Positions 1,686 through 48,717 of a stretch of 54,699 nt of DNA are shown in pieces (the first letter of the stretch is position 1; every line of letters starts with the position of its first letter). This stretch comes from a virus (Duplodnaviria > Caudoviricetes). The notes below the pieces were generated by a model. It was not told where the DNA came from and ran no database searches. It saw only the letters and a list, made by a program, of their open reading frames with translations. The stretch is from positions 1 through 54,699 of IMG/VR virus record IMGVR_UViG_3300009124_000016; one strand, 5' to 3'. The position numbers were made by a program, and so were the translations under genes.

Positions 1686-4600
1686 TTAGTACGCTTTGAT
1701 AAGGTACTTACACTTAAAGAATGGTTGAAGCAAAGGAATAGTTCTGTTTGGTTTCAAAGCAACACCAGGAAGGAGTGCTTTTTGTGCTGATAATGTAGCC
1801 AGTCCAGGAGAAATAGTTGTTCCTAGTTCAGTATGACTAAATGGAACATCTACCGTGTTGCCTCCACCCATACCTGTTGTCTTTGTTCCACCACCATTAA
1901 CATTACCCCATCCATAGACGTTCACAGGATCTCCAAAATCACTTAGAGACAAATAATGAGTATGTGTTAGCATTCCACCTTCTGGAGAATAAATTCTTCC
2001 TTGAGCAGTAGCTTGAATAACATCAATAGCACCAAGTTGGTTGCCACTGTTATTATCTAGTTGAAGACTATTTTCTATACTTGATGCCCAATAATTACTA
2101 TAAGTAACACTTCCTTCCCATGTGGCGGTACTCAAACCATTATCTAAAGTTGGTGCATTTGGAGCACCAGGCCATATAGTACTAATTTCGTTAGTTCCTT
2201 CGATAACAGCTGGCGATCCTACTGGTGGTGTTCCTCTGTGGTTCCATGGGATTAATCCAGATGTAACATTTAATCCAATACCAGTAAGAATTCCATGTGA
2301 ATGACCAGGAGGTTGAAGAACTGGTGAATCTAATGGTCCAACCGTAGCATTCATATTTCCAGCAACGTTGAAATTAGCAATTGCTGTTGAAGTGTCAAGT
2401 CCACTTGTATTGACAGTTCCAAGCGAGAAAAATTGTCCTGCAGTACCAGAAGTGCCAGTTCCTTCTACCTGTTCTAATGGTAAAGTTCCAGCAGCATCTA
2501 CAGTATCGATGTACCAATCACCACCAACAGATCCAACAGTATTAACTCCACCAGTTCCTATTCCCGCTGGTCCAACTCTAGTTGGAGCAGAAGGAGCAGA
2601 TCCCACATTTCCATCTACCTGACCACTTCCAAATAGTCTTCTATTTCTAAAATCGGGAAGAGTAAACGATCCAGAGTATGAATATGCATTTATGGTAGAA
2701 CTACCTTGACTAGTGGATGATAATGTTCTACTTCCACTTCCACCATAATCATTTCCAATAACATCAAATAAGTCTGGGTATTCATCTGCATCTAAAGAAT
2801 CGCCATTACATTCAATAAAACCAGGATATCTAGAAGTTAAACTGCCATCTAAAGTTCCCCAGTTTCCTTGAGGATCTTTAAAGATAGTAATGACACTGCC
2901 AATTGCAAGACCATCAAGTTTTTCTGTTTTTTGTGAATACCAAGTAGATACATCGTTGCTTGTAGGTGCCGATGCTAGCACAGATACATTCCACAATACA
3001 GAGACATTATCAATTGTTACTGCAATTTGAGCAATAGCACTTCCATATGATCCAGTCGTAAGTCGAAGTTGGAAATTATCTCCAGGATCAAAGTCAAATG
3101 GTGTGCTAGCTGGATTTGTTGCTAGATTTGTCCATACACCATTAAGTCTGATTTGTGCATTAGTAGCGCCACTAACAGTTTCTAGTCTAGCAAAACTACT
3201 AGCAGTTGCATTAAACCCAGTAGGAACAACGATATTACTATAAACTTGTGTATTTTCTAATTGATTTGTTCTTGCGGGTAGTGCAAATATATCTGGAGTT
3301 GTATCATTAGCATCAACAGCCGTAACTCTCCATTGACCAGATGTTTGACCAGTTGATACAGATCCAATAGTTACTGTTGCTGTTACTGCATTTCCTGCTA
3401 AACTTGGTGCAGTTGTTCTTAATGCTAAAGTATCTAGATTACTAATAGTAGTAGCAGCAGTAGAAAACAATCCACCATTAATACTATATGAAATGAGTGC
3501 ATTTGATGGAGACGTAGAAATTGTAAGTGCTGCTGGAACATTAATACCTTGAATTCTTTGAGTATTACTGGTCACTAGCGTACTAACTTGTCCAGTTGCA
3601 TCAATAAAATCAAATGGTGCTGGTGTTGTATCTTGAGAAGTAATAGTTGTTAATTGCCAATCTACTGCAGATCCAGCACCAACAGTAACACTGGCAGTTG
3701 TAGTTGTATTCAAAACAGTACCAGTGTCTGTAATTCTTAATGCTAATGTATCGCCATTGTTGATAGTTGATGAAACTACACCATTTACCAATACTTCTAC
3801 AGGTGTGCTTGCTCCACCTCTAGTTGCAGTTGCACTAACCGATGCTTGTTGTGTTAGACCACTAATAGTTACAGTATTACTTGTAACAGCCCTACTTAAT
3901 GGTCGCTCAGTAACATCAGTAAAATCAAATGCATTAGGTACATTACTTGGTGCATTGCCAGTAATAAGTTTAAATGTTGCTGTAACTTGTTGTCCAACAG
4001 GACCAACGGTCAATGTTGCAATAGTTTCAGCATTATATGAACTTGATGATATCATCCTAATACCAAGTGTATCTCCATTAATAACAGTTGTCGTAGCTCC
4101 TGTTAAAACTGTACCATTTTTAATGAGTAGAACACCATTAGTAACACCAGTTCCTCCAGTTACAGTTGCTGAAATTGTCTGATTGATACCAGTAATAGCT
4201 TGCTCGGTATCAGTATCATATGCAGTAGATCTATCTAGATTAGTTTGAGTACCGAAATTATTTAAATTGTTTGGTTGTTCGTCAATATCATCATATGCAA
4301 TGTATACTCCACCAGCTGATCCAGCTGTAGACTGTCCGCCACCAATTCCACCTTGAATTAGATCTGAGGGTCTTGAATTAGAAGCACTAGGAGCACTACT
4401 ATGAAAAGTTGTATTGTACCAAGAACCTCCGCCTGCACCTCCACCTGCGTCACTATCACTTGAAGGAGTAGATCCAGCAGAACCACCTGGGCGACCACCA
4501 CCGCCGCCTCCACCTGCTCCACCATCTCCACTATTATTACTGGCATTAGAACCATTCGCTACAGTTGTGGTTGTTCCAGACGTTAAAGTTGTTCCACCAC

Positions 4601-44286: not shown

Positions 44287-44903
44287 TAGATAATGTTTAA
44301 ACGAATAGAAGATAACCAATCGGGAGATCCAATCATACCATGTGGCCATGAATTAAACGACAAAGAATATCGATCCTTGCCTTTATTACCAGGAACCATA
44401 TGATCTAGCATGGAAGGAAAAATAAGTAATTCTCCTTTTTGTGGTAAATGTCGATGAACCAGTGTCATGGTGTCGTAGTCTTCGTAACTTAGTTTTACTA
44501 AACCACCAGTCATGTAATCAAAATTCCATATATTACAAACACCAAACTCGATGGGAGCAACACTTTCCATTGGATAGTAAACACCACTCATCAAAGAGTT
44601 TGGATGCATATGCATATGATGCCATTGATCATAACAGGATAGATTACCCCATGACTGAGTAACTCTTATACTTTCACAAGCATAATTAAGTTCATCTTTT
44701 ACCAGAGTTAGGCACTCTGTAAACCACTCATGTATTGTAGCATATTTGTTCTGTCGATGCAAGCTTTCAGTTCTGGGAGTTTGTAAGTTAGATGCTGTGG
44801 GTGTCCACTGTTCTTTCTTTAAATTAGCAAGAACCTCATCTGCTTCTTCATCAGAACTTTTAAATTTAAAAATTGTCTGAGGACAGATGCTAATTTTTTC
44901 CAT
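44286..44903 (-). CDS. Putative 2OG-Fe(II) oxygenase (TIGR02466-like)
   Basis: SWGN, H..H.HPNS..SGVYY, G.LLIFPS.L.H.V, R.SLSFN. Confidence 0.85.
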   Translation of the reverse strand: MEKISICPQTIFKFKSSDEEADEVLANLKKEQWTPTASNLQTPRTESLHRQNKYATIHEWFTECLTLVKDELNYACESIRVTQSWGNLSCYDQWHHMHMHPNSLMSGVYYPMESVAPIEFGVCNIWNFDYMTGGLVKLSYEDYDTMTLVHRHLPQKGELLIFPSMLDHMVPGNKGKDRYSLSFNSWPHGMIGSPDWLSSIRLNII

Positions 44904-44928
44904 AAAAAAAGAGGGTCCGAAGACCCCC
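44904..44928 (-). terminator. Terminator after psbD
   Basis: GGGGGTC-TTCG-GACCCTC followed by T7. Confidence 0.85.
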
Positions 44929-44934
44929 AGTATA

Positions 44935-45990
44935 TCACAGGGCGTTGCCTCTTGGCAATACTTCCTCTGGAAATACAAATTGTTCATGTGGTTGGTCAAC
45001 AGTTGCCATCCATGCTCTCAATCCTTCATTCAAAAGCTGATTCTTTGTGTAGAACGTCTCAAATTCAACGTCTTCTGCTGCTCTTATCTCCTGACTGACA
45101 AAATCGTAAGCACGGAGATTGAGGGCAAGACCAATAATGCCAATGGATGAAGTCCAGAGACCCATAACAGGAACAAACAACATAAAGAAATGAAGCCACC
45201 TTTTGTTGCTAAACGCGATCCCGAAAATCTGCGACCAATAACGGTTCGCTGTAACCATCGAGTAAGTCTCTTCTTCTTGGGTGCTGTCAAAAGCTTTGAA
45301 AGTATTTGCTTGCTCACCATCTTCATACAAAGTATTCTCTACTGTAACACCATGGATGGCAGAAAGCAATGCACCACCCAGGATACCTGCCACTCCCATC
45401 ATGTGGAAGGGGTTGAGTGTCCAGTTGTGAAATCCTTGTAGAAAAAGAAGGAATCTGAAGATTGCCGACACGCCAAAGGACGGCGCAAAGAACCAACTGG
45501 ACTGTCCGAGAGGGTAGATGAGAAATACACTAGTAAATACGGCAATAGGACCCGAAAAAGCAATCGCATTGTATGGTCTAATCCCTACGAGACGACTAAT
45601 TTCAAACTGCCTGAGCATGAAACCTATGAGAGCAAAGGCACCGTGGAGCGCCACAAAATTCCAGAGTCCCCCAAGTTGGAACCACCTGACAAGGCTCCCC
45701 TGAGACTCAGGACCCCAAAGTAGAAGAAGAGAATGACCCATAGCGTCAGCAGGAGTTGACACAGCTGCCGTGAGGAAATTAGCACCCTCAAGATAACTAG
45801 ACGCCAGTCCGTGGGTATACCAGCTCGTAACAAACGTTGTGCCAGTAAGCCAGCCACCAATTGCCATATAAGCAGTGGGAAAAAGAAGTAGTCCAGACCA
45901 GCCCACAAATACAAAGCGGTCGCGTTTAAGCCAGTCGTCGAGTACATCAAACCACCCCCTTCTTTGTTGTTGTAGTGTAGTTGTTGTCAT
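44935..45990 (-). CDS. psbD: Photosystem II D2 protein
   Basis: [18 protein letters not shown]...[12 protein letters not shown]. Confidence 0.99.
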
Positions 45991-46087
45991 GTTTTTTATC
46001 CTTTTTAAAATCTTTTAACCAGTAAAGTTGAGGCCACGTATCCATAATAATTTCTCTCAACTTCGGTGGAGTATCGTCGTTAATCAT
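45947..46087 (-). CDS. Small hypothetical protein
   Basis: [22 protein letters not shown]..., a small-ORF type I associate with the psbA-psbD interval of cyanophages. Confidence 0.5.
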
Positions 46088-46088
46088 G

Positions 46089-46142
46089 CGACTTTTTTGG
46101 TAAAAAAATTGGCGGGAAATTTTTTCCCCACCAATGAAATCA
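46089..46142. repeat. Dispersed intergenic A/T-tract element, copy B
   Basis: CGACTTTTTT..GGCGGGAAATTTTTTCCC..ATGAAAT, similar to 36290-36344. Confidence 0.55.
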
Positions 46143-46157
46143 GTTACTGATTTTGGA

Positions 46158-46233
46158 TCAACCGATTGCAGGTGCGGTGAGAGCAACAGGAGTTGACTCT
46201 GCTGCTGCCAGGTCGAGGGGGAAGTTGTGTGCA
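46158..46233 (-). pseudogene. psbA: Orphan duplicate of the psbA 3' end (24 codons + stop)
   Basis: Encodes [24 protein letters not shown]. 58/75 nt and 23/24 aa identical to 47380-47454. Confidence 0.95.
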
Positions 46234-46650
46234 TCAGTAAGACAAATAACGAACCTCATCAACATATCCCGACTCAATAGCAGTTTTAATCATTTCATCG
46301 GAAGAATTACCTTCCTTTGGTTTTGCGGAAAAGTAAATAACATATTTTGCATCTGGATACTTTGCTTTTAGGAGAGCACCATTACAAATTGCTTTCTTTA
46401 CGTTATCTGTGCGTTGAGCTCCTGGGCGTTTTTTTCCACCAGACTTACCACCTTTGTCTTCACCATATTCTTTGACTCCATCTTTTTCTGCGATATAATC
46501 AACGTTGATTCCAATGCCAGGAATCTTTACGTTTGTTTCAAGAATAGTATATCCCTTACTAATCAAATCTTCATTAACAATACGCTCAAATTCATCACCA
46601 GACGCTGTGCTTTCAGCTTGAAAGTTTTTGGAGACAGACGACGTTTTCAT
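46234..46650 (-). CDS. PD-(D/E)xK endonuclease (restriction/Mrr-like)
   Basis: G.EFE..V...L...[24 protein letters not shown]. 138 aa, overlaps the MTase stop. Confidence 0.7.
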
Positions 46651-47263
46651 AATCAATTCTTTGTTGAGAGTTTGATCCAAATCGCATTCCTCTTGATGGA
46701 ACACGAATAGATTCTACCACACTCATCCCATATTCGTCAAGAGTTTTGATGTGCCACTGGGTCACTTCCATAACTGTCCCAGAAGAAATAAAATCTTTAC
46801 AGTTCAAAATAAAAACACCATTATCCTTCAAGGCATCAACACACACTTTCCAAATTTTAGTATGTAAGTCTTCATACTTTTTATTTTTTTTACCATAATG
46901 TAAATTAGACGTTGTTCCTTCTGATAATTTTCTACCCAATTTGTGGCGATAGGTTATTCTTTTAGATTTATCAGATGCTTCAAAATCATCAGCCATACGA
47001 TTTCCATATGTTGGACTGGTTAAAACAGCATCAAATTTTTCAAGAGTAGGGACAACGATTAAAGAATCACCACAGATTGTTTTCTCATACTGATCAGCCC
47101 ATTCTTTTTCTATTTCAACGCCAACTACATCATACTCTGGTAGTAGTTTTGCGGTTGTTCCTAAACCCGCAAAAGGATCTAACACTCTACACCCCTCAAA
47201 GGGGAGAAATGTTTTACAAGATTCTAAAATATGAGGTCCCATTACAGCAGGATGTTTTGACAT
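46613..47263 (-). CDS. DNA amino-methyltransferase (N4-C/N6-A type)
   Basis: HPA, VLDPFAGLGTT (SAM motif I), GVEIE, GDS, LTSPTY (SPPY-like motif IV), LK..G. Confidence 0.85.
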   Translation of the reverse strand: MSKHPAVMGPHILESCKTFLPFEGCRVLDPFAGLGTTAKLLPEYDVVGVEIEKEWADQYEKTICGDSLIVVPTLEKFDAVLTSPTYGNRMADDFEASDKSKRITYRHKLGRKLSEGTTSNLHYGKKNKKYEDLHTKIWKVCVDALKDNGVFILNCKDFISSGTVMEVTQWHIKTLDEYGMSVVESIRVPSRGMRFGSNSQQRIDYENVVCLQKLSS

Positions 47264-47333
47264 ATCAATTTACCTTCATTTGTAGGTATTCTATCATAGA
47301 TTGAAGAATTTGGGTGTTGTCTCCTACTTCCCC

Positions 47334-47358
47334 AAGAAAGGATCCCGAAGGATCCTTT
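47334..47358 (-). terminator. Hairpin/terminator after psbA
   Basis: AAAGGATCC-TTCG-GGATCCTTT followed by CTT. Confidence 0.7.
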
Positions 47359-47379
47359 GCACGACAATGATTGATTATA

Positions 47380-48462
47380 TCAACCAACAGCAGGTGCGGT
47401 GAGAGCAACAGGGGTGCTTTCAGCAGCAGCAAGGTCAAGAGGGAAATTATGAGCATTTCGTTCATGCATTACCTCCATCCCGAGACCAGCACGGTTGAGA
47501 ACATCTGCCCAGGTGTTCAGGACTTTGCCCTGACTATCCATGATGGACTGGTTGAAGTTGAAACCGTTGAGGTTGAATGCCATGGTGCTAACACCGAGAG
47601 CAGTGAACCAGATACCAACGACAGGCCATGCTGCCAGGAAGAAGTGAAGTGAACGAGAGTTGTTGAACGATGCATACTGGAAGATCAGACGACCGAAGTA
47701 TCCATGAGCAGCAACAATGTTATAGGTCTCTTCTTCTTGACCGAACTTGTAACCATAGTTCTGGGACTCTTGCTCAGTCGTCTCACGGACGAGTGAAGAT
47801 GTAACCAAAGAACCGTGCATTGCACTGAACAGAGAACCACCAAACACGCCAGCAACGCCAAGCATGTGGAAGGGGTGCATCAGGATGTTGTGCTCTGCTT
47901 GGAAGACAAGCATGTAGTTGAACGTACCAGAGATGCCAAGAGGCATAGCGTCAGAGAAAGAACCTTGACCGAAAGGATAGACCAGGAAGACTGCGGATGC
48001 TGCTGCAACAGGTGCAGAGTATGCAACACAGATCCATGGACGCATACCTAGACGGTAAGAAAGTTCCCACTCACGTCCCATATATGCATAGATGCCGATA
48101 AGGAAGTGGAAGACTACTAGTTGGAAAGGACCACCATTGTAAAGCCATTCATCCAAAGATGCTGCTTCCCAAATGGGGTAGAAGTGAAGACCAATAGCGT
48201 TGGAGGAGGGTACAACAGCACCAGAGATGATGTTGTTGCCATACATGAGCGAACCAGCGACGGGTTCACGGATGCCGTCAATGTCCACAGGAGGAGCAGC
48301 GACGAAAGCAACGATGAAGCAGATGGTTGCCGCCAACAGTGTTGGGATCATCAGGACACCGAACCAACCGACATACAGACGATTGTTGGTGGAGGTTACC
48401 CAGTTACAGAATTGTTCCCAGGTAGATGCGCCTTGCTGACGCGAGAGAGTAGATTGAGCCAT
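47380..48462 (-). CDS. psbA: Photosystem II D1 protein
   Basis: Full-length D1 (NRLYVGWFG...[14 protein letters not shown]), uninterrupted. Confidence 0.99.
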
Positions 48463-48475
48463 TGTTTTTGTACGA

Positions 48476-48585
48476 AAAGTAAGACCATCAGGGAAATGGT
48501 GGAGTTACTATTTCCTCACCACCCTCAGGTGAGGATATGAGAGACTGTTTTTTATACACGCTGTTTAGTCTCGGTGAGGCGTGTT
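48476..48585 (-). ncRNA. PhotoRC-II-like structured psbA leader RNA
   Basis: Stems CACGC/GCGTG, GAGACT/AGTCTC, CCTCACC/GGTGAGG and ACCAT/ATGGT directly 5' of psbA, matching the known location of the motif. Confidence 0.7.
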
Positions 48586-48632
48586 TACAAAAGATTAGAG
48601 AACTTTACATTCCTTAACCCGTTGATGTATTT

Positions 48633-48661
48633 AGTATAACCCGTACCCAAGATCCTGTCAA
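48633..48661 (-). promoter_or_regulatory. psbA sigma70 promoter with overlapping late-like CTAAATA
   Basis: TTGACA-N17-TATACT followed by AAATA. Confidence 0.8.
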
Positions 48662-48717
48662 CCCCCTAAAGATGAGTATTTGTACCCGTTGTACCAGATC
48701 ATGAAGCGGCACAATAG

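Follow-up and report, generated by a model that had tools for sequence, protein, structure and literature searches.

How does a cyanophage come to carry two different ends of one photosystem gene, the second of them stranded behind foreign genes? The question is raised by IMG/VR virus record IMGVR_UViG_3300009124_000016, a contig of 54,699 nucleotides (nt) from a marine, T4-like cyanomyovirus with an estimated completeness of 28%. We analysed this 54.7-kb contig in its entirety and call it the window. Between psbA (coding for D1) and psbD (coding for D2), it holds a DNA methyltransferase (MTase), a small predicted nuclease and, behind the nuclease, a second copy of the last psbA codons. We call the end that still belongs to psbA the live tail and the second copy the orphan. 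A first-pass annotation, made from the letters alone, had proposed that the MTase-nuclease pair invaded psbA and exchanged its native end for a recoded one. Our analysis leads to another answer. With a probability of about 0.6, the locus is a decayed composite homing insertion, in which a break made by an Endo VII-family endonuclease at a known intron site would have been repaired from a donor, leaving the gene end of the recipient downstream.

Results

Two psbA ends flank a block of genes

All features of the locus lie on the minus strand, and codon numbers follow the standard D1 numbering. Read along that strand, the features are as follows.

47380..48462, minus: psbA (D1), intact and intronless, 360 amino acids (aa) (open reading frame (ORF); Photo_RC 1.7e-89)
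47434..47469, minus: live psbA codons Met331-Asp342 around the equivalent of the intron site (CGA/AAT at 47458/47457)
47380..47454, minus: live psbA tail, codons 336-359 plus stop (sequence comparison)
47337..47358, minus: hairpin behind the live tail, T-run truncated (RNAfold, -20.6 kcal/mol for 47385-47325)
47265..47336, minus: endonuclease gene remnant, F-CphI-like (Endo VII family), 72 nt with the final 23 codons and the stop (58/64 nt shared with the 3′ end of an ORF in locus L028)
46613..47263, minus: DNA methyltransferase (N6/N4 type), 216 aa (PF01555 N6_N4_Mtase 1.5e-11; PADLOC MTase_II 1.2e-13; phrog_67)
46234..46650, minus: small nuclease of predicted PD-(D/E)xK fold, 138 aa, ATG at 46650 (AlphaFold2 model, Foldseek)
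46158..46233, minus: orphan psbA tail, untranslated, with codons 336-359, the stop and, before them, the final base(s) of the Asn335 codon (tail alignment, tblastn)
45991..46157, minus: spacer from orphan to psbD (matches phage S-BM4)
46108..46135, minus: terminator-like hairpin in the native psbA-psbD spacer (12-bp stem plus T-run)
44935..45990, minus: psbD (D2) (ORF; Photo_RC 3.2e-72)

The layout drawn by the first-pass annotation, with psbA end, hairpin, MTase, nuclease and second tail copy, was reproduced. The live tail (47454-47380) and the orphan are identical at 58/75 nt and at 23/24 aa, the single replacement being Val to Ile. Twelve of the first 14 codons differ synonymously, and one stretch of 23 nt is identical. 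The live stretch Met331-Asp342 uses CAT, GAA, CGA, CAT and AAT. Before its last 30 codons, psbA uses CAC and CAT at 7 : 1, AAC and AAT at 17 : 2, and CGT and CGA at 10 : 0, which bears out the earlier remark that CAC and AAC dominate the rest of the gene. Searching the 54.7-kb window with a 32-aa tail peptide, we found two matching places only (tblastn, 1.7e-17 and 1.2e-11). The live tail is in frame with psbA; the orphan lies downstream of the endonuclease remnant and the nuclease. A putative ORF of 39 codons with a TTG start (46158-46277, minus strand) starts inside the nuclease 3′ end and runs through the orphan in the psbA frame.

Among 106 collected psbA-tail sequences, the window included, two tails are present in four, namely the window and loci L028, L030 and L094. 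In L028 and L030, as in the window, the MTase and nuclease genes lie between the two tails. Deposited cyanophage records that match the psbA-psbD region number 437, at about 80-90% identity; none of the 437 reaches 80% cover of the 3.6-kb region. For the DNA of the MTase-nuclease pair (the cassette), one deposited phage record matched, Sf-FR1 (211 nt).

An Endo VII-family endonuclease remnant lies behind psbA

The segment 47336-47265, previously taken for a spacer, translates to LGEVGDNTQILQSMIEYLQMKVN followed by a stop, that is, the last 23 codons and stop of an endonuclease gene. Of 64 nt compared, 58 are shared with the 3′ end of L028:203-580, a complete ORF of 125 aa that matches Pfam Endonuclease_7 (PF02945, 1.4e-17). 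F-CphI of phage S-PM2 matches the same Pfam family at 4.1e-26. A complete Endo VII ORF is also present in L030. The C-terminal motif LG.VGDN...MIEYL ends most of the listed Endo VII-family ORFs at the collected psbA loci.

In place of psbA exon 1, L028 and L030 open with 29 nt from the 3′ end of a group I intron family. Members of this family score 81.5 bits (L043) and 79.2 bits (L047) against RF00028, and the S-PM2 intron scores 87.8 bits. That intron end was present in 18 contigs; 16 of them have an Endo VII gene behind psbA, and neither the MTase nor the nuclease occurs in any of the 18. From the remnant and the structure of L028 and L030, the intact arrangement can therefore be deduced, from the intron through psbD: intron, exon 2, hairpin, Endo VII gene, MTase, nuclease, orphan tail and hairpin, with about 1.3 kb of other genes between the last hairpin and psbD. 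By this comparison, the window appears to be a decayed derivative of the intact arrangement, intronless and with its endonuclease gene nearly gone. The gene is deleted from the terminator T-run to the last 23 codons. The hairpin behind the live tail, which a terminator scan missed, is nearly the same as that in L094, where the T-run is full.

Finding an F-CphI-like remnant where a spacer had been assumed, and relatives that hold the whole gene and an intron, speaks against the MTase-nuclease pair as the invader of psbA. The broader idea of an invaded psbA 3′ end survives in part: a foreign block is present and the former gene end is displaced, while the pair loses its role as the invading agent.

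The locus L094 tells a related story. Its psbA is intronless, and the Endo VII gene downstream of it (L094:2771-3163; PF02945, 1.1e-14) continues in frame into a piece of psbA tail, from about codon 346 to the stop. Both MTase and nuclease are absent there. Orphan psbA ends can thus occur with Endo VII genes where the cassette is missing.

The orphan begins at the psbA intron site

By alignment to the window, the S-PM2 intron falls exactly between CGT (Arg334) and AAT (Asn335), which confirms the position at codons 334/335 that the first-pass annotation had given. Exon 2 of S-PM2 opens with AAT GCA CAC AAC right behind the intron. The orphan opens with (TG)A T GCA CAC AAC, which is 1 nt past the S-PM2 insertion site (CGN/AAT). 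In the available text of PMC6083498, F-CphI cleaves the intronless psbA of S-BM4 and the intron shields that of S-PM2; the 60-bp F-CphI substrate (SBM4-60Top, supplement file 6 of that paper) has GAGCGC/AACGCT at its centre. Taken by the S-PM2 exon junction and this substrate centre, the orphan does start at the intron and F-CphI site, as had been supposed. The live codons Met331-Asp342 differ from the F-CphI-sensitive S-BM4 sequence at 7/36 nt. As a rough estimate, a random breakpoint would fall within 1 nt of the intron site of this 1083-nt gene with a chance of about 0.003.

Could the segment 47457-46234 be a spliced intron? This reading was ruled out, as no Rfam intron was found and the sequence before the orphan would cause a frameshift. 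Searching 44800-48700 of the window, we obtained no Rfam intron at E<=1; the same search recovers the introns of S-PM2, L043 and L047. Its sole match lies upstream of psbA, and the same motif was also found in L043 and L047:

48500..48596, minus: PhotoRC-II RNA motif (Rfam RF01717, 65.6 bits, E 3.3e-10)

In L039, L044, L045 and L052, psbA is interrupted at places besides codons 334/335 (the protein alignment shows breaks of several hundred nt), which suggests additional introns or insertions. Near position 174 of L049, the 20-mer of the intron 3′ end is followed by sequence other than psbA exon 2.

The orphan resembles the downstream flank

The orphan with its spacer is collinear with the psbA end and psbA-psbD spacer of the cassette-free phage S-BM4 (86.8% over 242 nt), and therefore occupies the place of the original gene end. 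The live tail with its hairpin aligns best to other alleles (S-T4, 83.8% over 139 nt), and the live tail is identical to S-T4 at 70/76 nt.

Comparing the window with L028, we found identities of 614/651 nt for the MTase, 374/379 nt for the nuclease and 62/76 nt for the orphan. The two orphans differ by 12 synonymous nt changes and by one non-synonymous codon. Downstream of the orphan the two loci are unrelated: the window side matches S-BM4, and the L028 orphan with its downstream sequence matches the intact psbA end of L060 (92% over 129 nt). Given this pattern of divergence and the unrelated flanks, the two orphans would have diverged as working psbA ends and belong to their flanks. The same nuclease-orphan junction is thus present in at least two different psbA backgrounds, and the orphan appears, by its sequence, to be part of the flank and not of the cassette.

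The nuclease-orphan junction recurs in independent assemblies

Being a metagenomic contig from IMG/VR with 28% completeness, the window might be misassembled: psbA is conserved, and its two tails share the identical stretch of 23 nt. An assembler might have joined two phages through such a gene. The nuclease-orphan junction, however, lies outside the shared sequence, and it recurs in L028, L029 and L030, contigs of three Joint Genome Institute (JGI) metagenomes that are 94.7% identical to the window over 47327-46158. Logan contigs of four runs from four studies cover the cassette. The contig of run X6 spans 46188-47327 and then continues with psbA from 47405; those of runs X11 and X1 extend 15 nt into the orphan, and X11 goes on with 21 nt of a different tail allele. 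Seen in three JGI contigs and in independent Logan runs of different studies (X6, X11 and X1), this junction is therefore not a chimera. For the locus as a whole, we leave assembly a very small residual probability. The link in the window contig from orphan through spacer (46157-45991) to psbD is without independent support: the bins 45984-46125 have no cover in X1, X5 and X6 and a depth of 6.3/1.1 in X11, from which no inference was drawn.

A variant arrangement was seen in the Logan contig of run X5, where an orphan-like psbA tail, represented by its last 37 nt, leads over some unmatched letters to 47294 and on through MTase and nuclease. The tail upstream of the cassette there resembles the orphan allele of the window.

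The methyltransferase and nuclease form a mobile pair

The MTase carries an S-adenosylmethionine-binding motif (FAGLGTT) and a catalytic-type motif (SPTY). Its 3′ end is overlapped by the nuclease ORF by 38 nt. For the nuclease, we obtained no usable sequence match in Pfam, PHROGs, NCBIfam, PADLOC or PDB sequences. Its AlphaFold2 model (pLDDT, the predicted local distance difference test, 90.8) matches SfsA, EndoMS, XisH and AF1548 in Foldseek at a template modelling (TM) score of about 0.5, with three hits at E<=0.001. Across 24 aligned homologues, from a family of 454, residues E22, D51, E64 and K66 do not vary. Judged by the model, the small ORF has a PD-(D/E)xK restriction-endonuclease-like fold. 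Features of a type II restriction-modification (R-M) system can therefore be recognised in the pair: binding and catalytic motifs in the MTase and, as predicted by fold and the invariant D51, E64 and K66, a PD-(D/E)xK core in the nuclease. An R-M nuclease would be expected always to have its cognate MTase beside it, and this one often does not (see below).

The two genes co-occur in the window, L007-L010 and L028-L036. The contexts of the pair are several:

regA/hsp20 context: L008-L011 and L033 (Pfam HSP20 and a D12 MTase nearby)
after gp44: L031/L032 (Gp44_lid)
behind psbD, right after an HNH/Endo VII-like gene: L034-L036 (phrog_3322, 7e-34)
directly before psbD, without orphan: L007
reversed gene order: L037

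Across the contexts, DNA homology begins near the MTase start codon and ends with the nuclease stop. Cassettes at regA/hsp20, after gp44 and after psbD keep 84-93% nt identity and have no link to psbA, so the cassette is promiscuous cargo and not psbA-specific. The first-pass annotation had itself named cassettes unlinked to psbA as evidence against its proposal, and such cassettes are what we found. From these comparisons, the pair appears to be cargo with its own history of moving among sites.

Does the PD-(D/E)xK nuclease, with its MTase as self-protection, nevertheless act as the homing or R-M-like agent that cuts psbA at codons 334/335? The nuclease family looks selfish, its 454 members lying between core genes (after gp44, regA and gp41, and near psbD); the catalytic residues are invariant, the orphan abuts the nuclease stop codon, and the overlapping MTase and nuclease ORFs travel together (window, L007-L010, L028-L036). 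Against this, 84-93% identical cassettes sit at the regA/hsp20, gp44 and psbD sites, far from psbA, and in 10 of 16 IMG/VR loci the nuclease is found without this MTase, for example between a gp41-like helicase and mazG. One of the 16 loci retains a mere MTase remnant. Moreover, Endo VII, the enzyme family known for the psbA site, is present within the duplicated unit, and L094 has an orphan tail although it lacks this nuclease. We consider it improbable that the nuclease made the cut.

Several further observations concern the pair. In four contexts (window 47290-47305, L008, L010 and L032), the MTase start is preceded at a distance of about 35-45 nt by the element TATGnTAGAAT, which in the window and L028 is embedded in C-terminal codons of the endonuclease (SMIEY); it may be a cassette promoter or a joining microhomology. 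The HNH/Endo VII-like gene before the cassette (L034:726-1253, L036:651-1148) is a second homing-endonuclease-like partner of the pair. In isolate Sf-FR1, gp44 and gp62 flank the nuclease, which has a D12-class MTase as neighbour. In L007 (noted at 1106-1893), a 96.5%-identical cassette is followed 78 nt further on by psbD. Residues 51-139 are missing from this psbD, and its frame changes. The nuclease stop is replaced, which makes the ORF 8 codons longer, and the contig opens right at the MTase start codon.

Phage S-H9-2 (L001, MW147367) has a restriction enzyme of the MjaI family, an N6_N4 MTase and a thioredoxin between psbA and psbD (2697-3967). We rejected this pair as a relative of the cassette, since the MjaI family is unrelated and no second psbA tail is present. 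The accessible part of the S-H9-2 paper mentions its restriction-modification genes without reference to psbA (PMC10194205).

Codon variants at the site accompany downstream endonuclease genes

We compared 80 intronless psbA alleles, calling an allele endonuclease-linked when an Endo VII gene lay within 1.6 kb downstream. The codons CAC AAC of His337-Asn338 were altered in 14/14 endonuclease-linked alleles vs 16/66 alleles with no such gene seen, although 9 of these 66 loci have less than 600 nt of downstream sequence (Fisher 1e-7; unique 36-mers 12/12 vs 14/58). The live tail of the window has CAT AAT and its orphan CAC AAC. Intron-bearing alleles, 20 rows chosen by one common 20-mer, kept CAC AAC in 16/20 and had it altered in 4/20. 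Controlling for phylogeny with a psbA tree built without the site left 6 independent pairs and a trend that was only directional (on average 3.5 the same way, 0 opposite and 2.5 without difference; median p 0.125). This controlled test is underpowered. The codon association lends indirect support to a site-specific cut in intronless psbA.

An unusual, recoded live tail was ruled out. Equal-length tails occur in 79 of the intronless alleles, 65 endonuclease-free and 14 endonuclease-linked. Against the 65, the live tail has a mean identity of 59.6/75 and the orphan one of 60.3/75, about 80% in both cases. The 32-nt site sequence of the window was found identical in L073. By these comparisons, the live tail appears to be an ordinary natural allele with specific codon variants at the site. 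The idea of recoding falls with this, and what remains of it are the CAT AAT variants, altered as in all 14 endonuclease-linked alleles. The comparison suggested earlier, of which tail is closer to cassette-free alleles, had a mixed outcome: 38 of the 65 endonuclease-free alleles are nearer the orphan, 21 nearer the live tail and 6 tie, and the coding part of S-BM4 does not separate the two (see below). Ten of the 14 endonuclease-linked alleles are nearer the live tail than the orphan.

A homing event may account for the locus

Starting from what is directly observed, namely the anatomy of the locus, the endonuclease remnant, the intact relatives, the coincidence of sites and the flank-like orphan, we infer the following course. 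A free-standing Endo VII-family endonuclease would have cut an endonuclease-free psbA at the intron site, codons 334/335. The left end of the break would have been repaired by copying a donor, through its psbA end, terminator and endonuclease gene, and then the MTase and nuclease pair. The right end, starting from Asn335, was presumably joined directly behind the nuclease stop, leaving the last 24 codons of the recipient as the untranslated orphan. Once formed, the orphan would supply 76 nt of homology exactly at the cut; the block might therefore be copied into other cleaved psbA alleles, whatever their downstream sequence. In the lineage of the window, the intron is absent, the psbA end would be an endonuclease-associated allele, and the endonuclease gene would later have been deleted to 72 nt. 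The role of psbA as a recombination anchor, proposed in the first-pass annotation, is plausible on this account.

Several observations weigh against such a homing event, in addition to the limits of the codon association given above. In the coding part alone, identity to S-BM4 is 65/76 for the orphan and 65/78 for the live tail, so that the orphan appears no closer to S-BM4 than the live tail. The psbA gene is mosaic over its whole length, and no clean boundary of a conversion tract was found: identity to S-BM4 is 94% at psbA nt 821-960 and 82% at 961-1005, and the best breakpoint has an uncorrected p of 0.03. The site itself is defined by the exon junction and the substrate centre, not by a mapped F-CphI cut. 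As the L028 endonuclease is 33% identical to F-CphI, its target is taken from its family and context. Finally, repeats of an upstream gene end flank the cassette in L010 (regA, 34/37 nt, 92%) and in L031/L032 (gp44, 28/29 nt), and no homing endonuclease gene was seen at either place. The cassette may therefore make target duplications by itself.

These repeats also bear on a reading that does without a site-specific cut, by which short-repeat recombination or the integration of a small circle (of PeSL type or with long target duplication) built the locus and the match to the intron site is chance. It would be in keeping with the regA and gp44 repeats, with the hairpin behind each psbA tail copy and with the TATGnTAGAAT element before the MTase in four contexts; such mechanisms are known for T4-type phages (PMC4122927) and R-M systems (PMC2853133), as far as the available text of both sources goes. 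It requires, on the other hand, a 1-in-300 coincidence of position, and the unit between the psbA repeats holds an endonuclease gene whose family targets that very position. Furthermore, recipient-type sequence reaches to within 3 nt of the junction in two backgrounds, and a break at the junction fits this better than crossovers over 76 nt. On balance, we regard a locus built without a cut as unlikely, and prefer a homing event at the intron site.

The regA repeat copies lie at L010:264-300 and 1366-1402, and also occur in L008, L011 and L021; at regA/hsp20, the nuclease stop is followed by duplicated last regA codons, a stop and a terminator hairpin. The gp44 repeat of L032 comprises the native gp44 3′ end (575-603) and a copy at 1653-1681 that supplies the last codons of the nuclease. 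The 12 nt TTGTCTTACTGA end the nuclease in the window (46234-46245), L007 and L028, possibly an older scar of residence beside gp44.

Discussion

The duplicated psbA end may be more than debris. We tentatively suggest, with the odds against it, that the orphan is the working part of the element, a portable right homology arm at the cut site. The Endo VII gene and its cargo would then make up a splice-free, intron-like element that brings its own replacement gene end, and the MTase-nuclease pair would be a new kind of minimal phage-borne selfish cassette that travels behind different homing endonucleases and leaves duplicated gene ends. If this were true, the element could home into psbA of any cyanophage whatever the downstream sequence. 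The pair would ride behind Endo VII at psbA and behind an HNH-like gene at psbD, and its landing sites would be marked by duplicated gene ends of 76 nt (psbA), 37 nt (regA) and 29 nt (gp44).

Among the auxiliary metabolic genes of cyanophages, psbA is the best known, and it is widely used as a marker. If endonucleases drive the exchange of its 3′ end and cargo genes come along, selfish DNA would have a concrete route to reshape psbA and blur its phylogenies. Our observations suggest that homing endonucleases can ferry an MTase-nuclease pair among phage genomes. Lying side by side, the invading and the displaced gene ends offer a natural pair of substrates (CAT AAT vs CAC AAC) for studying F-CphI-type resistance. 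In a search of full-text literature, the accessible texts described neither a duplicated psbA end nor such a cassette in cyanophages.

How does the locus compare with known systems? In the intronless homing of T4 SegF and SegG, conserved genes stand on both sides of a free-standing endonuclease gene, and co-conversion takes in flanking markers. To our knowledge, the classical cases of this type leave no duplicated gene end, unlike the window. SegF and SegG are named among free-standing endonucleases in the consulted text of PMC6083498. Nuclease genes at exchange boundaries in phages, as reported in the available part of Barth et al. (PMC10448857), fit the general picture.

The nearest system by gene and site is F-CphI with the S-PM2 psbA group I intron, termed 'collaborative homing' (Zeng et al. 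2009, as summarised in the accessible text of PMC6083498). Both involve psbA and the same site between codons 334 and 335. In S-PM2 a free-standing Endo VII-family endonuclease gene lies directly downstream of psbA; the window retains the last 23 codons of a gene of this family at this place, and L028 and L030 have a complete ORF. An intron end is likewise present in these two relatives. Unlike S-PM2, the window is intronless, has a 72-nt endonuclease remnant and two extra genes (MTase and nuclease), and holds a displaced second copy of the sequence equivalent to exon 2. Our literature search found no description of such a displaced copy for S-PM2 in the texts accessible to it.

Insertions of R-M systems with long target duplication, as the available text of PMC2853133 describes them, share with the window the presence of M and R-like genes and a flanking direct repeat of >30 bp, which is a single copy in the insert-free relative (here S-BM4) and overlaps the 3′ end of the upstream gene. 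That class excludes another mobile gene inside, whereas the unit of the window holds an endonuclease remnant. In addition, the repeats of the window (76 nt) are 77% identical, so they derive from different alleles and not from a fresh duplication, and the R-M function of the pair is putative.

The PeSL cassettes of T4-type phages, in the accessible parts of PMC4122927 and PMC2839356, recall the window by the T4-like genome, the small optional genes, the terminator hairpins and the promoter-like element. In contrast to them, the two hairpins of the window differ in sequence and its repeat is psbA coding sequence.

The closest architecture is found in fungal mitochondrial DNA, where mobile endonuclease ORFs come with a C-terminal duplication in Allomyces atp6 and in Glomus atp6, atp9, cox2 and nad3 (available text of PMC3630166, with Paquin 1994 as cited there). 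There, as in the window, a foreign C-terminus is joined in phase, an endonuclease ORF follows and the native C-terminus lies downstream, and the two C-termini are nearly identical in protein and diverged in DNA. Unlike these fungal cases, as far as they are described in that text, the window involves a phage auxiliary metabolic gene and an endonuclease of the Endo VII family; its endonuclease gene is decayed, and an MTase-nuclease pair that includes a PD-(D/E)xK gene is carried as cargo. The arrangement of a mobile ORF plus C-terminal duplication, so far one of fungal mitochondria, is thereby extended to a phage gene. In summary, this locus is a real and well-supported structure that brings together the C-terminal-duplication architecture and probable homing at the intron site of psbA.

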